A DNA stretch of 64,000 bases from contig CAVSNY010000005.1 of NCBI GenBank assembly GCA_963729605.1, forward strand, positions 192,001 through 256,000, read 5' to 3'. The notes under the pieces were generated by a model. That model was not told the origin of the DNA, did not search any database, and saw only the letters and a program-made list of their open reading frames with translations. Position 1 is the stretch's first letter; each line of letters starts with the position of its first letter. This document shows positions 32,253-43,089 of this stretch, in pieces. The translations under genes were made by a program, and so were the position numbers. This DNA is from an uncultured Gammaproteobacteria bacterium (GTDB lineage Bacteria; Pseudomonadota; Gammaproteobacteria; DRLM01).

Positions 32253-32327
32253 GGGTTAAACCTCCATACATCCCATGCAGCAACCCGACGAGCGGGCACC
32301 CTGATGCATGTGCCGATGTATGTGTGA
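32253..32327 (-). ncRNA. rpsB leader (t44 / S2 autoregulatory RNA)
   Basis: CACACATACATCGGCACATG..GGGTGCCC..GGG..ATGGGATGTATGGAGGTTTAACCC resembles the gammaproteobacterial rpsB leader. Confidence 0.8.
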
Positions 32328-32482
32328 AGTACACCGTGGACGTCGGCTTGGGCGGTATACCCCGCGCCGGCAAAGACGCCGGTTTGAAAAGTATTCGCCT
32401 CGGCCATCCGGCCACAGCAGGTATCGTTAAGTTTACGTACCGCCGGCGGGGTGAAAACACATCACCATATCCCCAGCGATCC

Positions 32483-33647: not shown

Positions 33648-36331
33648 CCGATCCCACCGCCGCGACCGGCGCGCCCGTCGCCGTCTTTGACGATCCCGCC
33701 CTGGCGGCGGCCCTCGCCGAGGGCGGCGCGGCGGCGATCAAACTCTTTCGCGACGCGCTCAAACTCGCCAATCAGCAGCTCAAGAATGATTTTCTCGGCG
33801 GCACGCCCGCGCAACAATTGGTGCCCCGCCGCGCCGCGCTCGTGGATGGGTTGCTGCAAAAAATCTGGCCTCATTGGTTCGCGGCCTATGACGACGGCGT
33901 GGCGCTGGTGGCGGTGGGCGGCTACGGTCGCGGCGAACTGCATCCGGGCTCCGACATCGATTTGCAGATCCTCGTCGAGCCGGACGGCGACACGGCCCTG
34001 CGCGGCCAATTGGAAGAGTTCCTCACCTTTCTCTGGGACATCGGCCTGGAAGTCGGCCACAGCGTGCGCAGCGTGGCGGAGTGCGCCGAAGAGGCGAAAA
34101 AAGACATCACCGTCGCCACCAATCTGATGGAGGCGCGCCACCTGGCGGGCGCGGCCGCTTTGTACGAGGCCATGCGCGAGGCGGTGAGTCCGCCGCGCAT
34201 CTGGTCCAGCCTGGCCTTCTTTCAGGCCAAGCTGCTGGAGCAGATCAACCGCCATCACAAATACCACGACACCGCGTACAACCTCGAACCCAACATCAAG
34301 GAAGGGCCCGGCGGCCTGCGCGATATTCAAGTGATAGGCTGGGTGGCCAAACGCCATTTCGGCGCGGCGACGCTGCACGATCTGGTCGATCACCAGTTTC
34401 TCACCGAGGCCGAATATCAGACCCTGATCGAGGGCCAGAATTTTTTGTGGCAGGTGCGCTTCGCCCTGCACACCCTCACCGGCCGCCGCGAAGACCGCTT
34501 GCTGTTCGACTACCAGCGCAGCCTCGCCAATCAATTCGGCTTTCGCGACGGTGGCCCCAGCCTCGCCGTCGAACAATTCATGAAGCAGTACTACCGCACG
34601 GTGATGGAGCTGAGCCGGCTCAACGAAATGCTGTTGCAGCTGTTCGAGGAGGCGATACTCTACGCCGCCGATCCCGGCGAACCGACGCCGCTCAACAAAC
34701 GCTTCCAGCGCCGCAAGGGTTTCATCGAAGCGGTGAACGATGAGGTGTTTCACCGCTATCCCTTCGCGCTGCTGGAAATCTTCCTGCTGATCGAACAACA
34801 CCGCGAACTCAAAGGCGTGCGCGCCGCGACCATTCGCCTGATCCGCAATCACGCCCACCTCATCGACGACAAATTCCGCAACGACCTGCGCAATCGCACG
34901 CTGTTCATGGAAATCCTGCGTCAGCCGCACGGGGTGAGCGAACAACTGCGCCGCATGAACCGTTACGGCGTGCTGGCGGCCTACCTGCCGGCCTTCGGCA
35001 AGATCGTCGGCCTGATGCAATATGATTTATTCCACGTCTATACCGTGGACGAGCACACGCTTACACTGATCCGCAATCTGCGCCGCTTCACCCGCCCCGA
35101 ATACGCCAAGGAATTTCCGCTGTGCAGCGAGATCATGCAGCAGCACATTCCCAAACCGGAGCTGTTGTATCTCGCCGCGCTGTTTCACGACATCGCCAAG
35201 GGCCGCGGCGGCGATCACTCCGAACTCGGCGAACAGGAGGCGCTGCAATTCTGCCTGCATCACGGCCTGAGCCAATACGACGCGCGACTGGTGGCCTGGC
35301 TGGTGCGCCATCACCTCGTCATGTCGATGACCTCGCAGCGCAAGGACATCAGCGACCCGGACGTCATCAATGAATTCGCCGCCATCGTGCGCAGCCCGAC
35401 GCAGCTGAATTACCTGTACCTGCTCACCATCGCCGACATCCGCGGCACCAATCCCTCGCTGTGGAACAGCTGGAAAGACACGCTGCTGCTGGAACTCTAC
35501 ACCTCCACCATGCGCGTCATCCGCCGCGGCCTGGACAATCACATCGACCAGAGCGAACATGTCGCCGCGATGCGCGCCGAGGCGCGGCAACTGCTGCTTA
35601 CCTACGGCAACAATGACCAAGCCATCGAACGAGCGTGGCTGAATTTCTCCGAAGAATATTTTTTGCGCTATACCGCCGATGAAATCGCCTGGCATACCCA
35701 AGGCATCATACAAAGCGTCCCCGCCGAACTGCCGCTGATTCTGGTACGGCACCAGACCAAACGCGGCGGCACGGAAATCTTCATTCACACCCCGATCGAC
35801 GACCGGCTGTTCGCGCGCACCACCCACGCCCTCGATCAAATGGGCCTCAACATCGTCGATGCGCGCATCATCGGTTCGCGCGACGGCCTGACCCTCGATA
35901 CCTACATCGTGCTCGAAGACACCGGCCAGCCGATCAGCAATCCGTATCGCATCGAAGACATCTTCAGCAAACTGCGCGAGTGTCTGACCCGTCTCGACCG
36001 CGAGCCGGCCGTGACCCGCCGCCAGCCGCGCCAGTTCAAACACTTCGCCATACCCACCAAAGTTTCCTTTAGCGCCGACGAGCGCAACCAAAAAACCGTG
36101 ATGGAACTGATGACCATCGATCGCCCCGGCCTGTTGTCGCGGATAGGCCAGGCGCTGATGGAATGCGGCGCGCGCCTGCACAACGCCAAGATCGCGACGT
36201 TCGGCGCGCGGGTCGAGGACATCTTCCACATCACCGATCAGGACAACAAACCGCTATCGCGCGACGAACAATTCCAGTGTCTGCGCGCGGCCATCGTCCG
36301 TTACCTCGACACCCCGGCGCAGGATCGCTGA
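33644..36331 (+). CDS. glnD: [Protein-PII] uridylyltransferase
   Basis: AVGGYGRGELHPGSDIDL, EPNIKEGPGGLRD, HD domain, two ACT domains; TTG start overlapping the map stop inferred. Confidence 0.96.
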   Translation: MTDPTAATGAPVAVFDDPALAAALAEGGAAAIKLFRDALKLANQQLKNDFLGGTPAQQLVPRRAALVDGLLQKIWPHWFAAYDDGVALVAVGGYGRGELHPGSDIDLQILVEPDGDTALRGQLEEFLTFLWDIGLEVGHSVRSVAECAEEAKKDITVATNLMEARHLAGAAALYEAMREAVSPPRIWSSLAFFQAKLLEQINRHHKYHDTAYNLEPNIKEGPGGLRDIQVIGWVAKRHFGAATLHDLVDHQFLTEAEYQTLIEGQNFLWQVRFALHTLTGRREDRLLFDYQRSLANQFGFRDGGPSLAVEQFMKQYYRTVMELSRLNEMLLQLFEEAILYAADPGEPTPLNKRFQRRKGFIEAVNDEVFHRYPFALLEIFLLIEQHRELKGVRAATIRLIRNHAHLIDDKFRNDLRNRTLFMEILRQPHGVSEQLRRMNRYGVLAAYLPAFGKIVGLMQYDLFHVYTVDEHTLTLIRNLRRFTRPEYAKEFPLCSEIMQQHIPKPELLYLAALFHDIAKGRGGDHSELGEQEALQFCLHHGLSQYDARLVAWLVRHHLVMSMTSQRKDISDPDVINEFAAIVRSPTQLNYLYLLTIADIRGTNPSLWNSWKDTLLLELYTSTMRVIRRGLDNHIDQSEHVAAMRAEARQLLLTYGNNDQAIERAWLNFSEEYFLRYTADEIAWHTQGIIQSVPAELPLILVRHQTKRGGTEIFIHTPIDDRLFARTTHALDQMGLNIVDARIIGSRDGLTLDTYIVLEDTGQPISNPYRIEDIFSKLRECLTRLDREPAVTRRQPRQFKHFAIPTKVSFSADERNQKTVMELMTIDRPGLLSRIGQALMECGARLHNAKIATFGARVEDIFHITDQDNKPLSRDEQFQCLRAAIVRYLDTPAQDR

Positions 36332-36339
36332 CCGCCCGC

Positions 36340-36960
36340 ATGATCCGCCCCGCGCCCGCCGCTCCGCTACGTTGGTTGCAAGACTATGGCCTGCCCGCGC
36401 TGTTGACGCTGGCATCCTTGCTGATCGCCCTGCTCGGCGACAATGCGGCAGTTGCGTTGCGTTATGAACGCGATTCGATCCTCGCCGGCGAAGTGTGGCG
36501 CCTCATCACCGGCCACCTCGTGCATCTCAGCTGGTCGCACCTGTGGCTCAACCTCGGCGGATTGGCGCTGATCTGGTTTTTATTTCACCGCCAACTCAGC
36601 GCCGGAACGTGGTGGCTGGTGTTGTTGGTGAGCAGCCTGGCGGTGAGCGGTGGCTTTTTATTATTCGATCCCGATCTCGGATGGTACGTGGGTTTATCCG
36701 GCGTGCTGCACGGCCTCTTCATGGCCGGCTTGATCGTCGGACTGCGCGCCGGCGCGTGGGGCGACTGGCTGTTGCTGAGCGCGGTAGTGATCAAACTGAT
36801 CTGGGAACAACTCTACGGCGCCCTGCCCGGCAGCACCGAGGCCGCGGGCGGCAACGTCATCGTCGACGCGCATTTGTACGGTGCGATCGGCGGCGCGGCG
36901 GTCGCGCTGGCATTGCGGCTGTATCGACGGGGCAAAAGTGGTGAACGAGTCAATAATTGA
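36340..36960 (+). CDS. Rhombosortase (rhomboid-family protease)
   Basis: WRLITGHLVH, HLWLN, YVGLSGVLHG, AHLYGA. Confidence 0.85.
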   Translation: MIRPAPAAPLRWLQDYGLPALLTLASLLIALLGDNAAVALRYERDSILAGEVWRLITGHLVHLSWSHLWLNLGGLALIWFLFHRQLSAGTWWLVLLVSSLAVSGGFLLFDPDLGWYVGLSGVLHGLFMAGLIVGLRAGAWGDWLLLSAVVIKLIWEQLYGALPGSTEAAGGNVIVDAHLYGAIGGAAVALALRLYRRGKSGERVNN

Positions 36961-36991: not shown

Positions 36992-37038
36992 GGTAACAGC
37001 GGCGGCGGCGAAGCCGTCCGCAGCACCTAAAGTTAGGC
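36992..37038 (-). other. Degenerate attC-like site
   Basis: GCCTAAC containing the gene stop, then GCTGCGGACGGCTTCGCCGCCGC core; distal half degenerate. Confidence 0.45.
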
Positions 37039-37440
37039 ATCACTCGGCTTTGCCCCCGGAAACCATTCAACGTGCTGATCGCCCTGGCGGCCAAGATAGG
37101 TAACTCGCTGGCCACGAAGGAACGCGAAGTATCCTTGAACGCCTGCGCGAATAGCGCGTTCGCAGAATGCCCGAAACTTTTGCCCATGCTGTTGGCTATC
37201 GAGGATTGCGGCTTTGAGAGCAGTTACGTCAAAGTCCTCGGAAATCAACGGCAGCTTCTCGAATGGAAGTGAGGCCGTTACTGCAGAACCTGAGGCACTG
37301 TAAAAGGTAAAGGAGTTTGTAGCGTAATCCACATGATAGTACTCAACACCTTCGGCAATGAGCTTGCCAACGATTTGAGGAAAAGGCATTGAGCCATCCA
37401 AGGTAGCTTTGGCCAATGAGCTAACTACGTTTGCGTCCAT
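37033..37440 (-). CDS. DUF1398-like protein (cassette gene)
   Basis: FPQIVGKLIAEGVEYYHVDY ... VTYLGRQGDQHVEWF pattern; stop lies inside GCCTAAC. Confidence 0.7.
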   Translation of the reverse strand: MDANVVSSLAKATLDGSMPFPQIVGKLIAEGVEYYHVDYATNSFTFYSASGSAVTASLPFEKLPLISEDFDVTALKAAILDSQQHGQKFRAFCERAIRAGVQGYFAFLRGQRVTYLGRQGDQHVEWFPGAKPSDA

Positions 37441-37591
37441 AACATCTCCGAGAATTGGCTGGCTGGTAGTGATGCCGGATGGCAGGCACGTCGAGAGTCA
37501 GATATGGCTTCATGTGTATCGTGACAATCGGCATCCGGCGCAATGCCCTTCGGTTGTTGCGCTCTACGCAGGCTCATTTCATTTTGTTGAC

Positions 37592-37660
37592 GCTGAACAC
37601 CAAAGCTCAGCTGCGACGCGAAGCGACGACAGAGGCGTCAGCTGGAGCGCCTTATTGGGC
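37592..37660 (-). other. attC site
   Basis: GCCCAAT-AAGGCGCTCCAGCTGAC...GCAGCTGAGCTTTGGT-GTTCAGC. The R'' box is complementary (one mismatch) to the cassette start GTTGGGCTG at 38011. Confidence 0.75.
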
Positions 37661-37993
37661 TGCAATTATTTCAAGCTCACGAATAAGTTTCCTCAATTCT
37701 TCTTTGCCTTGAGCATTGAGCGGCGTTGAATTGTCTTTTGTGAATTCGCCCTCAATGTATTCTCGATTCTCCACAATGTGTTTGTATCGCTCGCGAATAT
37801 TGTCTAGGCGCTTGTCGTATGCGATGCGAACACACGAAAACTCATCAAATGCCGCCAGACTCAAACGACCCTCGATGCTTGCGTTAATGATATTTTTTAT
37901 ATCCTCAGCCGACGGCCGATATGTCTTGTCGCTTTGACGTTGCATAAAATAGAAGAACGCAAAGAGCCCAACGATGCTTACGGCTAGCCACAT
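37652..37993 (-). CDS. Hypothetical membrane-anchored protein (cassette gene)
   Basis: N-terminal hydrophobic segment; lies between the attI-like GTT and an attC, with its stop in R''. Confidence 0.7.
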   Translation of the reverse strand: MWLAVSIVGLFAFFYFMQRQSDKTYRPSAEDIKNIINASIEGRLSLAAFDEFSCVRIAYDKRLDNIRERYKHIVENREYIEGEFTKDNSTPLNAQGKEELRKLIRELEIIAAQ

Positions 37994-38004
37994 AGTCTTT
38001 TTCA

Positions 38005-38185
38005 GCCCAACTTAAATTAGACATCCTCATTGACGTCTTATAAGGCTTCATCATGTGTTCTAAATCTTTTCCCAGGGTAAAAGTATCCTGCATATCAGCA
38101 AGAAAATAAAATTTAGGGTGCCCTAATTAGAAATGACTAATACGGCAGATCATCCACCTGAGTAGCTCGGCCAGAAAAATTGGGA
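38005..38185 (-). other. attI-like platform, copy 1, with divergent short ORF stub (ATG 38133, premature TAG 38163)
   Basis: GTCTAA-TTTAA-GTTGGGC at the cassette junction; about 90% identical to 40501-40681 by manual alignment. Confidence 0.65.
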
Positions 38186-38186
38186 C

Positions 38187-38309
38187 AGCTCGGTAGAGCG
38201 GATGCGTGCAACGCGATCCGCCGAATGTGAGCGCCATGTGGCTGCACTCCTAACCTATCTTGCCAAAGCCATGCGGCGGAACGCCCTTTGGGCTTCCGCC
38301 CTACGAGCT
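38187..38309. repeat. GTAG-family REP doublet (REPIN-like)
   Basis: AGCTCG-GTAGAGCGGATGCGTGCAACGCGATCCGCCG...CGGCGGAACGCCCTTTGGGCTTCCGCCCTAC-GAGCT; near-identical to 39201-39322. Confidence 0.85.
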
Positions 38310-38335
38310 AAAGGAGCCAGGCTCAAATTATTTTT

Positions 38336-38404
38336 CTAAGCTCAGCCGCGTCTCCGGCGACGCGAAGCGGCGACAGGGGCGTCGGCTGGGGCGCCTTGTT
38401 GGGC
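38336..38404 (-). other. attC site truncated at R'
   Basis: GCCCAACAAGGCGCCCCAGCCGAC...GCGGCTGAGCTTAG, with no GTT following. Confidence 0.7.
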
Positions 38405-38704
38405 TGCCGCTAGTACTGCTTGCGCATGCAATTTCAAGCCTAGGGCTTCAATGACCTTGAGGATAGTATCGAAACCAGGGCTTCGTTCTCCAGAGAGTGC
38501 CTTATACAAACTTTCGCGGGAGAGACCGGCGTCACGTGCCACTTGCGACATGCCCTTGGCACGTGCGATGTCACCCAACGCCTTGGCGATAAAAGCGGCA
38601 TCTCCATTTGCCTCCTCTAAGCAAGCTTCCAGATAGGCCGCCATTTCTTCCGGAGTGCGGAGGTGTTCGGCAACATCGTAACGACTAGTACGGGTCTTAG
38701 TCAT
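38342..38704 (-). CDS. Addiction module antidote protein (HTH antitoxin)
   Basis: YDVAEHL..EEMAAYL, ALGDIARAKGMSQVARDAGLSRESLYKALS; the C-terminus reads through the attC. Confidence 0.9.
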   Translation of the reverse strand: MTKTRTSRYDVAEHLRTPEEMAAYLEACLEEANGDAAFIAKALGDIARAKGMSQVARDAGLSRESLYKALSGERSPGFDTILKVIEALGLKLHAQAVLAAAQQGAPADAPVAASRRRRRG

Positions 38705-38713
38705 GATGAGTTC

Positions 38714-39004
38714 CTACATGTTACGAGCCAAGCGCAAAGCGGTTTTGATATCACTGGTCTGGCTCCGTTTATCACCGCCCGCCAGGAGAATTAACACCGT
38801 GCGGCCATGTTTCTTGTAATACACCCGGTAGCCGGGGCCGTAATCGATGCGCATCTCCGAGACGCCTTCACCCACGGGCTTAACGTCCCCGGGATTTCCG
38901 GCCACCAAGCGTTCGATTCGTACCAGAATACGAGCCCGAGCGCGGATATCGGGCAGGCCATCGAGCCACTTGACATAGGCTTCCGTCTTACGGATTTCAA
39001 TCAT
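38714..39004 (-). CDS. Addiction module killer protein (RelE/ParE-superfamily toxin)
   Basis: GNPGDVKPVGEGVSEMRIDYGPGYRVYY..LLAGGDKRSQ; toxin-first gene order. Confidence 0.92.
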   Translation of the reverse strand: MIEIRKTEAYVKWLDGLPDIRARARILVRIERLVAGNPGDVKPVGEGVSEMRIDYGPGYRVYYKKHGRTVLILLAGGDKRSQTSDIKTALRLARNM

Positions 39005-39010
39005 GAACCG

Positions 39011-39039
39011 AATGTATCCATACGGCTACACACTGTCAA
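39011..39039 (-). promoter_or_regulatory. Sigma70 promoter of the TA operon with overlapping operator palindrome
   Basis: TTGACA-17 bp-TACATT, 6 bp before the ATG; imperfect palindrome TGTAGCCGTATGGATACA. Confidence 0.75.
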
Positions 39040-39200
39040 TTTGGTGTACTGTAACTGTTTAAGTGGCGTAGGGGTAGGTTTAAACCCAATGGCTTAGCTG
39101 GGATTCGGCTTCGCCTCATCCCAGCCTACGAATTTGGTGGTACGCTCGTGTGCCGGACGCATGATTTGATTGGAGATGATTCCTGTAAATTAGAACCCGC

Positions 39201-39322
39201 AGCTCGGTAGGGCGGATGCGTGCAACGCGATCCGCCGAATGTGAGCGCCGCGTGGCTGCACTCCTAACTATCTTGCCAAAGCCATGCGGCGGAACGCCCT
39301 TTGGGCTTCCGCCCTACGAGCT
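39201..39322. repeat. GTAG-family REP doublet (REPIN-like)
   Basis: Direct near-identical copy of 38187-38309. Confidence 0.85.
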
Positions 39323-39334
39323 CTGATAGCGTTA

Positions 39335-39538
39335 TTAGCGTGCATACGCCAACAAACCTGAAAACTGATGCGGAGGGAAGGAATCGAACCCTCCACGTTC
39401 TCTCTTGGAAAGAATGTATTTGATCACACAACCACCTCTCGTTTGGGTTGGAGTTTTTTCCACCAGGCTCCGCAGGAACGCAGCTCCGCACCAAACACAT
39501 GCCACAACAAACTGAACTATGGCGTTTAAGTTTTTCAT
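39335..39538 (-). CDS. Putative 67-aa protein in a highly structured cassette
   Basis: GGAGG-5 nt-ATG; hydrophobic N-terminus (AIVQFVVACVWCGAAFL); stop inside the R''-like ACGCTAAT. Confidence 0.45.
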   Translation of the reverse strand: MKNLNAIVQFVVACVWCGAAFLRSLVEKTPTQTRGGCVIKYILSKRERGGFDSFPPHQFSGLLAYAR

Positions 39539-39641
39539 AATTACCTCCGTCGCCGTTTCAATGAAGCTGTTTACGGAATGGTAGATGTCCAACCCAAACG
39601 AGATTTCAATGTGTGCCTCAATACAAACCCCTTTACCCAAG
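39369..39641 (-). ncRNA. Candidate structured RNA: long rod plus T-arm-like 3' hairpin
   Basis: Nested complementary segments found by eye, including a perfect 16-bp pair 39437-39452/39588-39603; many G-U pairs work only on the minus strand. Confidence 0.45.
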
Positions 39642-39664
39642 CCATTACGATTTGATTGTTACTA

Positions 39665-40497
39665 GAACCTATCTCAAAATTGCCTGAGCAGGATACCGAT
39701 GGTTGCCAGCTGCACAAACCCGAGAAAATTCTCGGCGTAGTATTCCCAACGGACCAGGAGACGACGTTGCCATTGAAGCCAGGCAAAGAAGCGTTCCACC
39801 AGCCAGCGTCGTTCGTATCGGCGCAGGCGACGCCCGTCTTGTGTCTTGGATTTTACGCGATTCTGCCGGTGCGGCGAGATCATCTCGATGCCCTCTTGCC
39901 GCAATTCCTCGTCCAGTTTGTCGCTGTCGTAGGCACGATCGCCAATCAGATTTTCCGGCTTCGCTTCGATCATGTAGAACTCGAAACTCAGCTGCACCAG
40001 CGTGACTTCATGGTGGTTCGCCGCATGCGTACTGACCGCCAGCGGCAAGCCGTGACGATCCACAATTGCCATGATTTTAACGCCTTTTCCGCGTTTTGTC
40101 GGGCCGATCTCCGCGCCGCCGCCCTTGGCCGAGGCAAACGTGGCATCGATAAAGCATTCCGATTCATCCAGCGCGCCTTCATCGCGCAGCGTGTTGGCGA
40201 GAGAGGTCATGACATCACGCAGCACTTCGTTGCGGCACCAATTCTGAAAACGGCGATGCACCGTTTTGTAGTTCGGATAGCATTGCGGCAGCATATGCCA
40301 CTGCGCGCCGGTATTGAGAATCCAGAGAACGGCATCGAGGACTTGACGGGAAGAAATCGGCTTGCGACCTGCGCGCCCCGCCGCAATGTTTTCCTCCGGA
40401 AAGTGTTCCCGGATGCGTTCCCAGTGTTGGTCGCTCAGCCGTAGCATGCGGCAAATTATATGCGATTCTGCTCAGCTTGTGATTTTGAGATAGGTTC
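39665..40497 (-). mobile_element. IS5-family insertion sequence
   Basis: Perfect 16-bp terminal inverted repeats GAACCTATCTCAAAAT, flanked by TA on both sides (probable target duplication). Confidence 0.92.
39674..40447 (-). CDS. IS5-family DDE transposase
   Basis: LSDQHW, WHMLP, TVHRRF..W, IDAT, GDRAYDS, RWLVERFFAWL. Confidence 0.93.
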   Translation of the reverse strand: MLRLSDQHWERIREHFPEENIAAGRAGRKPISSRQVLDAVLWILNTGAQWHMLPQCYPNYKTVHRRFQNWCRNEVLRDVMTSLANTLRDEGALDESECFIDATFASAKGGGAEIGPTKRGKGVKIMAIVDRHGLPLAVSTHAANHHEVTLVQLSFEFYMIEAKPENLIGDRAYDSDKLDEELRQEGIEMISPHRQNRVKSKTQDGRRLRRYERRWLVERFFAWLQWQRRLLVRWEYYAENFLGFVQLATIGILLRQF

Positions 40498-40500
40498 TAC

Positions 40501-40681
40501 ACGCTAACTTAAATTAGACGTCCTAATTGACGTCTTATAAGGGGTCATCATGTGTTCTAAATCTTTTCCCATTGTAAAAGTATCCTGCATATAAGCAAGA
40601 AATTAAATTTAGGATGTCCTAATTAGAAATGGCTAATACGGCAGATCATACACCTGAGCAGCTCGGCCATAAAAAGTGGGA
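40501..40681 (-). other. attI-like platform, copy 2
   Basis: GTCTAA-TTTAA-GTTAGCG; homology to copy 1 stops at the GTT crossover triplet. Confidence 0.65.
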
Positions 40682-40727
40682 AAGATTTATTTATTCGCTC
40701 GTCAACCACAAACTACTACTCGTTTAG
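40629..40727 (+). pseudogene. Possible 5' stub of a long-form integron integrase gene
   Basis: MANTADHTPEQLGHKKWERFIYSLVNHK: position and orientation divergent from attI as expected for intI; recalled resemblance to N-terminal extensions of long IntI proteins, not verified. Confidence 0.4.
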
Positions 40728-40813
40728 CGCAGCCTTTTTGCGGTCCACTGGATACGGCTTGCCCTGGAACGCAGCGGAAGGGTAATCCGTCGGACTCAAA
40801 GCGGTTGTTATGT
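40727..40813 (-). other. Fused fragments of two truncated attC sites
   Basis: ACATAACAACCGCTTTGAGTCCGAC...GGGCAAGCCG joined to ATCCAGTGGACCGCAAAAAGGCTGCGCT; no R'. Confidence 0.5.
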
Positions 40814-40826
40814 GTTCGAATTGCGG

Positions 40827-41123
40827 TCACAGGATGTAACCATGAAGATCGGTGACGAGCCTTTGAATCGCCGACTGAAATTCACTTTCTTTAGCCTCAA
40901 GTACTTTTGTGGGCAGGTTCTCCCACTCATCGCTCTTCCACGCCGCGGCATAGCCGAAGCCTTCCTCTCCATCCCACTCTAAGAGCACCCGCTTTTCATC
41001 GTGAACGAATATAGTTCTTATCGAACCATAATAATCGAGCTGACTATTGTCAGATTCGATTCCGAATCCCGCCTTCTCTAAAACAGGCCAGATTGCTTCC
41101 TTAATTCGATAGTGCTCGTGCAT
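40827..41123 (-). CDS. Hypothetical protein (cassette gene)
   Basis: Follows the attC R' GTTGTGT and ends just before ACATAAC. Confidence 0.65.
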   Translation of the reverse strand: MHEHYRIKEAIWPVLEKAGFGIESDNSQLDYYGSIRTIFVHDEKRVLLEWDGEEGFGYAAAWKSDEWENLPTKVLEAKESEFQSAIQRLVTDLHGYIL

Positions 41124-41132
41124 GCCTTTTAC

Positions 41133-41199
41133 ACACAACGACCAAGCTCAGACGCGGCGCCGCGGCAGCGGCGACGTCGGCTGGAGCGCCTTGTTGGGC
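41133..41199 (-). other. attC site (complete, 67 bp)
   Basis: GCCCAAC-AAGGCGCTCCAGCCGAC...GTCTGAGCTTGGTC-GTTGTGT. Confidence 0.85.
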
Positions 41200-41202
41200 G
41201 CC

Positions 41203-41517
41203 TTAAAGGAAATTGTAACTGTCATTTACCTCTACTCCAACGTAGTTATTGTTTGAGTCAAGCAATATGTGAATTGTGATGGCATGAAAATTTGATTTCG
41301 GATGCCGAATGATTGCTTGATATCTATTTCCGAAACTGTCGTAGGAGAACTCTAAACCTCGTTTTCGGAGGTACTGTTCGATTGCTTCGGTGTTGTCACC
41401 TGGTTTCAGGGCGGACGAAATTTCCACTTCAACTTCTTCGGGCGTAGTGTCGAGCGTAAACAGACAGCCGGACAACAGTCCGAAAGAAAGGAGGAAAACT
41501 ATATGTTTAAGGCTCAT
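41203..41517 (-). CDS. Hypothetical lipoprotein (cassette gene)
   Basis: MSLKHIVFLLSFGLLSG-C lipobox. Confidence 0.7.
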   Translation of the reverse strand: MSLKHIVFLLSFGLLSGCLFTLDTTPEEVEVEISSALKPGDNTEAIEQYLRKRGLEFSYDSFGNRYQAIIRHPKSNFHAITIHILLDSNNNYVGVEVNDSYNFL

Positions 41518-41529
41518 TGTCTGATAGAC

Positions 41530-41549
41530 GCCCAACTACATAGTTAGGC
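41530..41549 (-). other. Minimal 20-bp attC remnant (R''-6 bp-R')
   Basis: GCCTAAC-TATGTA-GTTGGGC; each box is complementary to the other end of its own cassette. Confidence 0.6.
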
Positions 41550-41619
41550 GGGAGAGCGAAGGCACGGTGTTGCACTTGCATGTGACGCCTCGCTGTTGAC
41601 AGGTCCCTGGACATCGATT

Positions 41620-42069
41620 TCATCGCCCATATTTTGGCTGATAGATTGTCCATGAGGAAAACGCTGGGTTATACCTCCGATACACAGCTTCAGGAGCGTT
41701 CTCTGCGGTGATGACGAGATCTTTACCGACTAGAGAACAAAGCTCAGAAAAGAAGCCTAGGACGAGCTCATGAGTGGACAGGTCAGTCACTTGTCGGGGA
41801 TCAATATCAAGCTCGATTTCGTCGGTGGTGAAGAAGTGACAGTTGATGGATGCATTGCCAACGTTCACTGTCAACAAATGACTACCGTCTCGGTTCGCAA
41901 AGATGCTGTGCGGATGAGGAAGCTCTTTAGGAGCACCATCGAAGGTATACACATGCGGCCTGCGACTGGCAACCTCGATCAAGACGCACCAATCAGCTAT
42001 GTCTGTTTTATCGATGTATGCATCCCGAAGCGAGCCATCGCATTCCCACAGGTCTGGCGGTTCAATCAT
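41620..42069 (-). CDS. Hypothetical protein (cassette gene)
   Basis: WECDGSLRDAYI...NCHFF..EIELDIDPRQV; bounded by TTAGGC and GCCTAAC. Confidence 0.7.
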   Translation of the reverse strand: MIEPPDLWECDGSLRDAYIDKTDIADWCVLIEVASRRPHVYTFDGAPKELPHPHSIFANRDGSHLLTVNVGNASINCHFFTTDEIELDIDPRQVTDLSTHELVLGFFSELCSLVGKDLVITAENAPEAVYRRYNPAFSSWTIYQPKYGR

Positions 42070-42085
42070 TGGCTGCTCTCAAAGG

Positions 42086-42147
42086 GCCTAAAGTCTAGCT
42101 CAGGGGCGCGCCGCTTTTGACGCGTTCCTTGGAGCACTTGGTTGGGC
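42086..42147 (-). other. attC site with mutated R' (TTTAGGC)
   Basis: GCCCAACCAAGTGCTCCAAGGAACGCG...GCGCGCCCCTGAGCTAGAC-TTTAGGC. Confidence 0.7.
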
Positions 42148-42252
42148 AGCCTTAACTGGTCTTGGATCGTGACGGTTGATTTCCGCAGCGAAAGTGAAGA
42201 GATCATCACAAGCCATCCCCCAATCTCATTTCATTCCATCCGGGCTACTCGC

Positions 42253-42978
42253 TCAACCATTATGAATATAGTGCAGTCTGCGTGTTAAATTCCGCATTGC
42301 CTCGAACCACTTGTCCCCGACCATGCGCGCCATCAATGCACGGTATTTGCAGATTTTTAGGTTGTTGGCTTTGGTGATGTATGCGTCTATGGCGCGAGTA
42401 GTATTATTCCACGCGGCGAGGGTATCGACATCGATGTTCGGCGCCCGTTTCAAACCAATAAAGCACAAATCGAAGGAAGCCCAGTTCACCCAGAGCCGGT
42501 AATGAGCAAAGGCTTTTTCCAGATCGCATTCACCGGCGAAGTCGCGGCCGGTCAGATTGCGGTAGTAATCCCATCCTTGTTCGACGGTCAGTGGTGAGTT
42601 AGTCGGTGTTGACCTTGTCGTCCCGTGTTCCGGACGACCTGTGGTGGCGCACGTCATGGTGACTAGCCCCCCGGGCCTGCACACGCGTGTCATGTTATTG
42701 AAAGTTTCCTTCCAGAATGGATTATGTTCCATTACTTCACACGAGATGACCTGGTCAAACGAGTTATCAGGCGCATCATAACGTTGTCCCTCGCAAACAA
42801 CGTCAACACCTCGGCCGGGCGCAATATCTATTCCCAGATATTGGCAGTTGGTGAAAAAGTCTCGCACACTACCGTTGATATTTAGTGAGCCTATTTCCAA
42901 AACTTTAACGTCACGGAAGAAACTTGGAAGGCCGACTGCAACCAATCCGACGTAATCACGCTGACTAAGATGTGACAT
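42253..42978 (-). CDS. Class I SAM-dependent methyltransferase
   Basis: VLEIGS, YLGIDI..GRGVD, FDQVISCEVMEH, RPGGL. Confidence 0.85.
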   Translation of the reverse strand: MSHLSQRDYVGLVAVGLPSFFRDVKVLEIGSLNINGSVRDFFTNCQYLGIDIAPGRGVDVVCEGQRYDAPDNSFDQVISCEVMEHNPFWKETFNNMTRVCRPGGLVTMTCATTGRPEHGTTRSTPTNSPLTVEQGWDYYRNLTGRDFAGECDLEKAFAHYRLWVNWASFDLCFIGLKRAPNIDVDTLAAWNNTTRAIDAYITKANNLKICKYRALMARMVGDKWFEAMRNLTRRLHYIHNG

Positions 42979-43089
42979 TGTGTGGCCCTGGAAAGGGTTG
43001 CCTAATTATTCGATGTGTGTGTGTGTGTGGAGCTCGGCCGGTTGGAGCGATTTCTCGAAGCCCAAGCTCTCACCGCCCGCCATAAACAC

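Follow-up and report, generated by a model that had tools for sequence, protein, structure and literature searches.

The stretch analysed here (the window) comprises 64,000 nucleotides of contig CAVSNY010000005.1 from an uncultured Gammaproteobacteria bacterium, and contains an array of gene cassettes at about 37000–43000 whose open reading frames (ORFs) lie on the minus strand. The array is flanked by a rhomboid-family gene (36163–36957) and by housekeeping-looking genes. One cassette holds the subject of this report, a structured element at 39366–39649 (−), and is split by an insertion sequence (IS). With the IS at 39665–40497 excised, GTTAGCGTG at 40508–40500 (−) and its complement CACGCTAAT at 39342–39334 (−) frame a cassette, as had been proposed from the sequence of the window (hereafter, the original prediction). 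We find that the element belongs to an undescribed family of horizontally spread integron-cassette genes, of which the window holds one member. Each such gene specifies a small hydrophobic protein, carried by an mRNA of about 255–296 nt whose 3′ half folds back on the coding half, and the 3′ end forms a tRNA-like acceptor/T minihelix whose 5′ strand is coding sequence. The features of the locus, in order along the minus strand, are the following; P1 to P4 denote the helices of the rod.

40500–40508 (−): 5′ boundary of the cassette, G/TTAGCGTG, complementary to 39334–39342 and separated from the element by the IS.
39665–40497 (−): IS4/IS5-type IS with terminal inverted repeats GAACCTATCTCAAAAT... 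and TA on either side; transposase at 39674–40447.
39366–39649 (−): conserved element (row 1 of the family alignment), a structured mRNA with rod, small ORF and tRNA-like 3′ domain, recognized from its fold, its covariation and 94 distinct homologues.
39637–39641 (−): 5′ strand of P1, CUUGG, which includes the UUG; pairs with CCAAG at 39404–39408 (98.6–98.9% paired).
39338–39640 (−): frame-conserved ORF, 101 aa in the window, starting at the UUG (39640–39638) inside P1 and identified by frame tests.
39609–39629 (−): 5′ strands of P2–P3; pair with 39410–39431, with 13 of 14 pairs changing on both sides.
39587–39603 (−): 5′ strand of P4, UCUCGUUUGGGUUGGAC, codons I-S-F-G-L-D; pairs with 39437–39453 (17 pairs, 96.8% paired).
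39338–39538 (−): 67-aa ORF, from an in-frame internal AUG (39538–39536) preceded by GGAGG at 39548–39544.
39475–39487 (−): small hairpin GGAGC-UGC-GUUCC (98.7% paired) within the invariant core (39468–39496).
39468–39473 (−): 5′ strand of the acceptor helix, GCGGAG (third base of a Leu codon, an Arg codon and the first two bases of a Ser codon), recognized by covariation.
39460–39467 (−): D-arm-like mini-hairpin CC-UGGU-GG (80.3% paired; UA in 37 and CG in 10 copies at one pair).
39376–39394 (−): T arm with a 6-bp stem, recognized by covariation, and the loop UUCGAUU (39382–39388), present in 55 of 94 copies.
39366–39375 (−): 3′ strand of the acceptor helix, CUCCGC, followed by A and then UCA (CCA in 75 of 94 relatives).
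39262–39342 (−): attC-like site, R″ CACGCUAAU ... G/UUAGGAG, read by eye and from its repeats.

A DNA search found the element to be single-copy in its own genome. BLAST against 60 related genomes returned one partial match, in genome G055, leading to locus L003, where the same long helix recurs with G-U changes, the ORF is far shorter and the 3′ end reads ...CCCGCACCA. A 27-nt degenerate pattern built from these two copies matched 36 genome stretches and 87 metagenome stretches; its 27 positions are fixed by the search, and their constancy is therefore uninformative for every family statistic given below. Carriers among the genome stretches include beta- and gammaproteobacteria, Chloroflexota, Gemmatimonadales, Victivallaceae, Pirellulales, Nitrospirae, Cloacimonadota, Desulfobulbaceae and a Gloeobacterales cyanobacterium, among others. 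After removal of identical and truncated rows, the alignment held 94 distinct full-length copies, which are 54–91% identical to the window copy and fall into two subfamilies of 65 and 29 copies. Each locus has one copy, and nhmmer over all loci detected no second, diverged one. A search of viral contigs with the arms of P4 gave no matches at a gap of 95–125 nt and two at 122–150 nt; both of these copies, found by the arms only, also contain the core pattern. At the protein level, a first word search with the 66-aa form returned six proteins, with frame shifts after FLRSLVE, and a peptide profile search yielded 121 protein clusters at E ≤ 1e-3, most of them with VWCG[VIA]AFLR and a minority with variants of it. 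We found no description of the element in the literature searched on integron cassettes, noncoding RNAs (ncRNAs) and tRNA-like RNAs, supplements lying outside that search.

Passages of PMC8876359 describe cassettes as usually promoterless protein genes, and gene-less ones as promoters, regulatory RNAs or unknowns; cassettes recombine as folded single strands, according to passages of PMC5737381. Integron integrases (TIGR02249, 383–480 bits against a cut-off of 265) occur in four of the family loci (L004, L064, L068 and L116). All four are divergent from the element, so the RNA strand of the element is the cassette-sense strand, and in three the element lies about 0.9–1.0 kb from intI. By eye, 8 of 14 inspected copies have a typical attC after the element and a GTTRRRY before it; our attC scripts were over-strict (25/93 and 26/91 detected), and their counts are no measure of absence. 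A GTTRRRY core, an attC of its own and cassette sense next to IntI, the marks of an integron cassette, are all found in the family. The window's own assembly, which is 94% complete, contains no IntI above the cut-off (best 76 bits against 265), which makes the window array an integrase-less cluster of attC sites. The IS, whose 257-aa transposase matches DUF4096 (4.5e-23) and DDE_Tnp_1 (4.8e-18), sits between the cassette core GTTAGCGTG and the element, about 20 nt upstream of P1 and in the same orientation. It probably severs the window element from upstream cassette transcription, while read-through out of the IS could still occur. The window copy is otherwise intact in rod, T arm, acceptor helix and ORF, with UCA in place of CCA as in several relatives.

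Folded as RNA, 39662–39325 (−) has a minimum free energy (MFE) of −122.1 kcal/mol, as against −92.7 ± 5.3 kcal/mol in 100 dinucleotide shuffles (z −5.58, none as good); the plus strand reaches a z of only −2.65. We then scored across the family a 56-pair structure consisting of the P1–P4 rod, the core hairpin, the D-like hairpin, the T arm and, as a pseudoknot, the acceptor helix. Its cells are paired in 93.7% of cases as against 86.6% in shuffles, with none of 500 as high, and 32 of the 56 pairs change on both sides; a 48-pair version gives 93.7% versus 85.8%, again with none of 500 as high and with both sides changing in 30 of 48 pairs. Slid controls are 43–55% paired. Among paired cells, G-U/U-G combinations number 409 and A-C/C-A combinations 55, which places the fold on the minus strand as RNA, as the original prediction had it. 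Compensatory changes affect 21 of 36 rod pairs, among them a CG-to-UA exchange in P1 in three copies. P4 is near-invariant in sequence, its variation being mostly C-G to U-G and U-A to U-G, and its 18-mer has no other match in its own genome at up to three mismatches. Changes in the core hairpin are one-sided only, the core being fixed by the search pattern.

Several helices named in the original prediction are thus conserved with compensatory changes, namely the 16-bp helix, CUUGG/CCAAG, UGUA.../...UACA and CACACA/UGUGUG. The apical half is not: CUACCA/UGGUGG, UUCCGUA/UGCGGAG, CAGCUUC/GGAGCUG, GCGACGGA/UUUGUUGU and AAUUAUG/CAUAGUU belong to the window's MFE only, and in the family these apical pairs are paired in 67.9% of cases versus 67.2% in shuffles, with covariation equal to the shuffle mean (209 of 500 as high). 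Within nested folds, ensemble pairing assigns the 3′ tail no definite partner. What the family conserves is a strand-specific structured RNA with a rod that pairs the invariant UUG and the first ~18 codons to the 3′ half.

The reading frame is conserved together with this fold. A 67-aa ORF with a hydrophobic N-terminus had been predicted, and its AUG does have a Shine–Dalgarno-like (SD) sequence 4–10 nt upstream in 89 of 94 copies, but it is only the distal part of the frame-conserved 101-aa ORF. The AUG and the core are always 27, 30, 33, 36, 39, 42 or 48 nt apart, and the 5′ strand of P4 precedes the AUG by 47, 50, 53, 56, 59, 62, 65 or 74 nt, in phase in 91 of 92 copies with one exception at 58 nt. 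The frame has persisted through at least 13 independent indels that are multiples of three, and only one indel within it is not of this kind. Upstream of the AUG, at least 25 codons are open in frame in 88 of 92 copies, versus 38 and 14 in the other two frames. The UUG in P1 is kept (TTG) in 91 of 92 copies; 89 of 94 have it in frame with the core, and 86 of 94 have it inside the open frame. The ratio of nonsynonymous to synonymous polymorphism (pN/pS) over the 5′ strand of the rod is 0.53 in frame as against 1.06 and 0.94 out of frame, and from P4 to the AUG it is 0.69 versus 0.95 and 0.83.

Substitutions in the ORF are hydrophobic-conservative, and the conserved protein measures 52 aa in subfamily B and 60 aa in subfamily A. 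It consists of an alternating hydrophobic/polar stretch, ISFGLE, a hydrophobic segment, EVxMxNS, a second hydrophobic segment and VWCGxAFLR; the conserved motif reads L-E/G-x-x-x-x-I-E-x-H-x-x-I-S-F-G-L-[ED] ... E-V-x-M-x-N ... V-W-C-G-x-A-F-L-R. Downstream of FLR, the copies read the rod's 3′ strand in any of the three frames (PTQTRD, FQPKRE and SNPNER), stop codons range from +1 to about +70 codons past FLR, and the tail is unconserved. The 3′ half of the element is constrained as RNA and not as protein, and the 3′ limit of protein conservation falls inside the tRNA-like domain. The short forms matched no Pfam or NCBIfam family at or above its cut-off, 81 long forms searched against Pfam-A and NCBIfam gave one chance match in one member (TMEM234, E 0.0078), and PDB chains gave no match at E ≤ 1.

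The 3′ end closes the RNA with a tRNA-like domain. The original prediction had noted a T arm followed by an acceptor strand; both are real, and the 5′ partner of that strand, which it missed, is GCGGAG inside the ORF. Five of the six T-stem pairs covary, and ACCA follows the 3′ strand of the acceptor in 73 of 94 copies, the window having AUCA. The acceptor helix consists of six pairs (96.2% paired): position 5, which is never mismatched, is occupied by A-U in 64 copies and by G-C in 28, and position 6 by G-C in 68, A-U in 3 and C-G in 1. The second GCGGAG repeat fits these positions better than the first (100% and 79% versus 88% and 51% at positions 5 and 6). The hairpin GUGGAGGG/CCCUCCGC had been proposed as an alternative; at the 3′ end, the covarying pairs belong to the T arm and to the acceptor helix that uses the upstream GCGGAG. 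U precedes the acceptor at position −1 in 94 of 94 copies, at a position fixed by the search pattern. Bacterial RNase P prefers U at −1, G1-C72, A73 and CCA. A stand-in for the D arm is limited to a UGGU hairpin of 2–4 bp, with the variants CUC/GAG, CC/GG, CUU/AAG and GCC/GGC. In one family member, L067:2234–2520, an unrelated hairpin, GGGUACGC-UGU-GCGUACC, takes the place of the T arm, and rod and ORF are kept.

A T arm with its loop and an acceptor with N-CCA are thus found, in a geometry of 6+6 bp rather than 7+5 bp; six acceptor and six T-stem pairs make up the 12-bp stack of a tRNA minihelix. Infernal aligns the tRNA-Sec model end to end with L037:6920–7029 (21 bits, E 0.074, cut-off 47), using the same two acceptor strands and CUC-UGGU-GAG as the D arm, and aligns the tRNA model RF00005 end to end with window positions 39438–39369 (−) at 18.1 bits, below the cut-off of 29. 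A full cloverleaf with conserved anticodon and D arms was considered and rejected: that of the window is not matched by the family consensus, in which everything between the D-like hairpin and the T arm serves as the rod's 3′ strand. In its own genome, nothing else resembles the 26-nt T-arm/acceptor string at up to three mismatches, and the string was therefore not copied from a host tRNA. The acceptor helix forms a pseudoknot with the rod, its 5′ strand lying inside the rod loop and its 3′ strand outside; the two may coexist or may represent alternating states.

That the RNA belongs to no recognized class, as the original prediction suggested, agrees with the model searches. ARAGORN found no tRNA and no tmRNA in the whole 64-kb window. 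At gathering level, Rfam 15 gave no match in the element or in 18 family loci, and in the window it matched only a t44 RNA outside the array (RF00127, 72.2 bits, 32255–32344 (−)); at E ≤ 10, it added only sub-threshold tRNA and tRNA-Sec alignments and chance matches. Like the cassette-borne sRNA-Xcc1 (RF02221), an RNA gene spread between taxa according to passages of PMC8876359, the element travels in cassettes, but the sRNA-Xcc1 model covers 87 positions and has no ORF. The window has no match to it, and its own genome only chance-level ones elsewhere (17 bits against a cut-off of 53), so identity with sRNA-Xcc1 was rejected.

The element shares with tmRNA (SsrA) a tRNA-like domain (acceptor, T arm, D-loop analogue and CCA), a short frame and a long connecting helix. 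Unlike tmRNA, its acceptor pair 3-70 is G-C in 91 of 92 copies rather than the alanine identity element G3-U70, its frame has start codons of its own with an SD (89/94) and an in-frame UUG (89/94), the 5′ strand of the acceptor lies inside the frame and the rod loop, and the stems are 6+6 and not 7+5 bp. A tmRNA identity was rejected on the negative ARAGORN result, the absence of G3-U70 and the frame with its own starts. Plant-virus tRNA-like structures, the mascRNA of MALAT1 and the RNase P-processed C4 RNA of phages P1 and P7 are known tRNA-like processing ends. As in these, an acceptor/T-arm mimic stands at the 3′ end of a longer RNA, where it can recruit RNase P and CCA-end enzymes; in contrast to them, the mimic of the element occurs within an integron cassette of bacteria, coding sequence supplies its 5′ strand, and its processing is a prediction. 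By comparison with the Rfam 15, tRNA, tmRNA and sRNA-Xcc1 models, we rate the element as a new class with a predicted function only.

The element is present in RNA libraries. For its commonest variant (locus L039), sampled words are common to 14 runs recorded as RNA, and the element occurs in contigs of four RNA runs from four studies (X5, X6, X7 and X9). The comparison covered L039:1838–3127, within which stretches without contig cover are uninformative. Contigs of X5 and X6 span L039:2292–2605 and pass into Illumina adapter sequence at 2605, a position that corresponds to nucleotide 23 of the element and falls between P2a and P2b; the X9 contig ends at L039:2603, and that of X7 reads through upstream. 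The contig ends near nucleotide 23 hint weakly that a 5′ end may lie downstream of the UUG.

Downstream of the element, the genes are mutually unrelated (47 Pfam families among 74 ORFs). Two recurrent neighbours may be noted. Schlafen AlbA_2 (PF04326) genes begin 49, 60 and 6 nt past the 3′ end of the element in L016:2504–3892, L045:5577–6362 and L113:436–1002, with no attC between and in at least two sub-lineages of the RNA. Weaker AlbA_2 relatives lie up to 1 kb upstream of the element in L024 and L054, and the 2958 six-frame ORFs of 80 aa or more from all loci include no AlbA_2 ORF farther than 1 kb from the element. Eukaryotic Schlafens cleave tRNA acceptor stems, and the adjacency could point to function. 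In five copies of subfamily B, a conserved 77–81-aa protein with a zinc-ribbon-like CxCGH...CPxCG motif and its own SD begins 16–19 nt after CCA (L012:370–612, L040:609–839, L064:9251–9493, L080:2050–2280 and L117:1374–1604); the Pfam scan included L012, L040, L064 and L080, and no family matched more than 3 of the 74 ORFs.

To account for these features, we tentatively favour, at somewhat less than an even chance, a closed small-protein mRNA of the type I toxin kind whose tRNA-like 3′ end gates it through processing and whose product is membrane-active. Type I toxin mRNAs such as hok, aapA1 and tisB have such a closed build. With hok/sok, aapA1/IsoA1 and tisB/istR the element shares a hydrophobic protein of about 50–60 aa, a start paired to the 3′ part of its own mRNA (the UUG and codons 1–18 lie in P1–P4), an in-frame or overlapping second start, carriage on mobile DNA and processing as a plausible trigger. 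It differs from them in its tRNA-like ACCA 3′ end, its unconstrained C-terminal tail and a toxicity that is predicted only, and neither an antisense antitoxin nor a match to a Pfam or NCBIfam toxin family was found, nor, in a sigma-70 consensus scan of 39200–40700, a promoter. The long-range closure of hok mRNA, invoked in the original prediction, remains a reasonable analogy; the observation behind that prediction is partly confirmed and largely real, and its interpretation is partly supported.

According to this model, the full-length RNA would be closed, nuclease-resistant and poorly translatable, with the start region locked within the rod. The tRNA-like end would allow the 3′ end to be matured and protected in any host, by RNase P, 3′ trimming and the CCA-adding enzyme, and such maturation by universal enzymes would explain the spread over many phyla. 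Translating Leu-Arg-Ser and forming the acceptor helix would be mutually exclusive. A cut by RNase P between U(−1) and G(+1) would sever the message within the Leu codon, so that processing would choose between the long protein, the peptide from the internal SD-AUG, or nothing. The product would most likely be a membrane-active small protein of a toxin-like or addiction-like module; the active product may be the long protein, the short peptide or the RNA.

A number of observations weigh against this model. In the folding ensembles of 92 copies, the SD is paired to about 70% but with no dominant partner, so that its sequestration is unspecific, contrary to the original prediction of a ribosome-binding site (RBS) hidden in an apical stem. 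The true start is uncertain, the UUG being preceded only by an AAGG-like sequence that is closely and poorly spaced, and from the AUG to the core pN/pS is 0.72 versus 0.76 and 1.44, indicating weak peptide selection with one control frame alike. AlphaFold2 (AF2) on an 81-row alignment gave one long low-confidence helix (residues 17–61, mean pLDDT 54.5). In the tRNA-like domain, CCA is lacking in 19 of 94 copies including the window; position 6 of the acceptor is mismatched in 20 of 92; four of the six acceptor pairs lie inside the pattern-fixed core, where covariation is invisible; and support for the helix comes from positions 5 and 6, of which position 5 largely tracks the subfamily split. 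Coexistence of rod and acceptor helix would need a pseudoknot with short linkers. A scan of 39200–40700 for promoter and terminator consensus, restricted to sigma-70, found none in the element on either strand, and the window yielded no antitoxin candidate. Finally, the contigs give no strand, ends or level, and RNA libraries may contain DNA.

Of the other explanations, the one that survives best, although we think it unlikely, makes the RNA itself the product: a tRNA-mimicking ncRNA serving as a decoy or sensor for acceptor-end enzymes, or a two-piece RNA held together by the rod after RNase P cleavage, with translation of the ORF serving only to remodel the fold. It would fit a 3′ half kept as structure and not as protein, the conserved acceptor, T arm and ACCA, and a P4 that is near-invariant on both strands though its 3′ strand is read in three frames. 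Selection on the peptide is merely moderate (pN/pS 0.53–0.72), and the SLFN_AlbA_2 genes stand directly downstream, with no attC, in L016, L045 and L113; such genes nevertheless make up only 3 of 74 downstream genes, and the P4 18-mer lacks a second match in its own genome that might serve as a target at the mismatch limit given above. The frame, moreover, is kept over about 57 codons through the indels described, with hydrophobic-conservative substitutions, and this conservation weakens a purely noncoding interpretation.

We consider it improbable that the element is a cis-acting expression module of the array, with tRNA-like "punctuation" and a translated leader that process or stabilize transcripts or drive the next gene. 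In 31 of 93 copies the 3′ end is followed, within 75 nt, by the start of an ORF of at least 60 aa, although by eye some of these ORFs are separated from it by an attC or seem spurious; the zinc-ribbon genes of L012, L040, L064, L080 and L117 are clear cases without attC; the element stands near the head of the array in three of four integrase loci; and gene-less cassettes can be promoters or regulatory RNAs, as passages of PMC8876359 state. Against this, 8 of 14 copies inspected by eye stand alone with an attC behind them, the downstream genes are unrelated, and a conserved hydrophobic protein with a rod over its start would go unexplained.

An ordinary small membrane-protein cassette, in which rod and tRNA-like end are an mRNA stabilizer or the relic of a captured tRNA 3′ half and no switch exists, seems to us just as improbable. 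The ORF signal is as expected for such a gene, and any mRNA would be protected by a 3′ hairpin followed by attC. The compensatory changes in T arm (5/6), rod (21/36) and acceptor nonetheless reveal selection on specific pairings, codons included, and the absence of a genomic relative of the T-arm/acceptor 26-mer speaks against a host tRNA copy.

Still less probable, in our estimation, is a natural mRNA–tRNA chimera acting via its tRNA-like domain, or an acceptor-mimic decoy or tripwire. In the former, an RNase P cut would leave a non-stop mRNA tethered through the 45-bp rod to a CCA-ended, possibly aminoacylatable tRNA-like piece, and a stalled ribosome would encounter an acceptor arm in cis, which would make the RNA a "tmRNA in reverse" or a device for peptide–RNA conjugation. 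In the latter, the RNA would be bait for attackers of acceptor ends (Schlafen-like nucleases, CCA-modifying toxins or phage factors), and damage would free the membrane peptide.

The continuous ~240-nt rod of the original prediction, with the RBS and AUG of the 67-aa ORF hidden in its apical stem, is very improbable: its pairs are present in the window's own MFE, but across the family the apical ones score at the level of shuffles, no single partner dominates for the SD, and the ORF reaches further upstream. Least credible is a DNA-level element (a folded single-strand recombination site, a miniature inverted-repeat transposable element or a cruciform), since, although cassettes recombine as folded single strands (passages of PMC5737381) and the plus strand also beats its shuffles, G-U far outnumbers A-C in paired cells and the element is single-copy per genome and locus, lies inside the cassette apart from attC and is present in RNA libraries.

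The remainder of the window array contains other repeats and cassettes. A stretch of about 190 nt occurs at 37998–38188 and at 40495–40684 (88–89% identity), each copy ending on the minus strand in a 7-bp hairpin, AGACGTC-loop-GAYGTCT, and then AATTTAAGTTRRRY, which resembles a short attC. The stretch may be a cassette without an ORF that is present twice, and one of its copies abuts the IS. The distal part of the attC-like site behind the element and the start of the next cassette recur at 38186–38309, as part of a 123-nt repeat (38186–38309 and 39200–39322, 96–100% identity) that comprises the distal attC-like hairpin and the first ~60 nt of the next cassette. The cassettes that follow the two copies diverge, which suggests duplication or recombination within the array. 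Directly downstream of the element, a cassette of the toxin–antitoxin type (38342–39004 (−)) encodes a Gp49/HigB-like protein (PF05973, 8.5e-7) and then an HI1420-type antidote with a helix-turn-helix (PF21716, 1.9e-30). Just beyond a methyltransferase-like cassette ORF (42253–42978), the edge of the array holds a (TG)n run of about 16 nt (43011–43026).

The family places one kind of cassette in many phyla with an RNA under two overlapping constraints, its codons doubling as helix strands. For RNA biology, the interest lies in a structured RNA of a new class that has a pseudoknotted tRNA-like domain, and for the study of integrons and defence in a cassette of about 400 bp that may serve addiction or defence. 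If the favoured model of a closed mRNA gated by processing is true, these cassettes would use the universal tRNA-processing machinery for compact, host-independent gating of a small membrane protein, and would represent a new kind of bacterial tRNA mimic.

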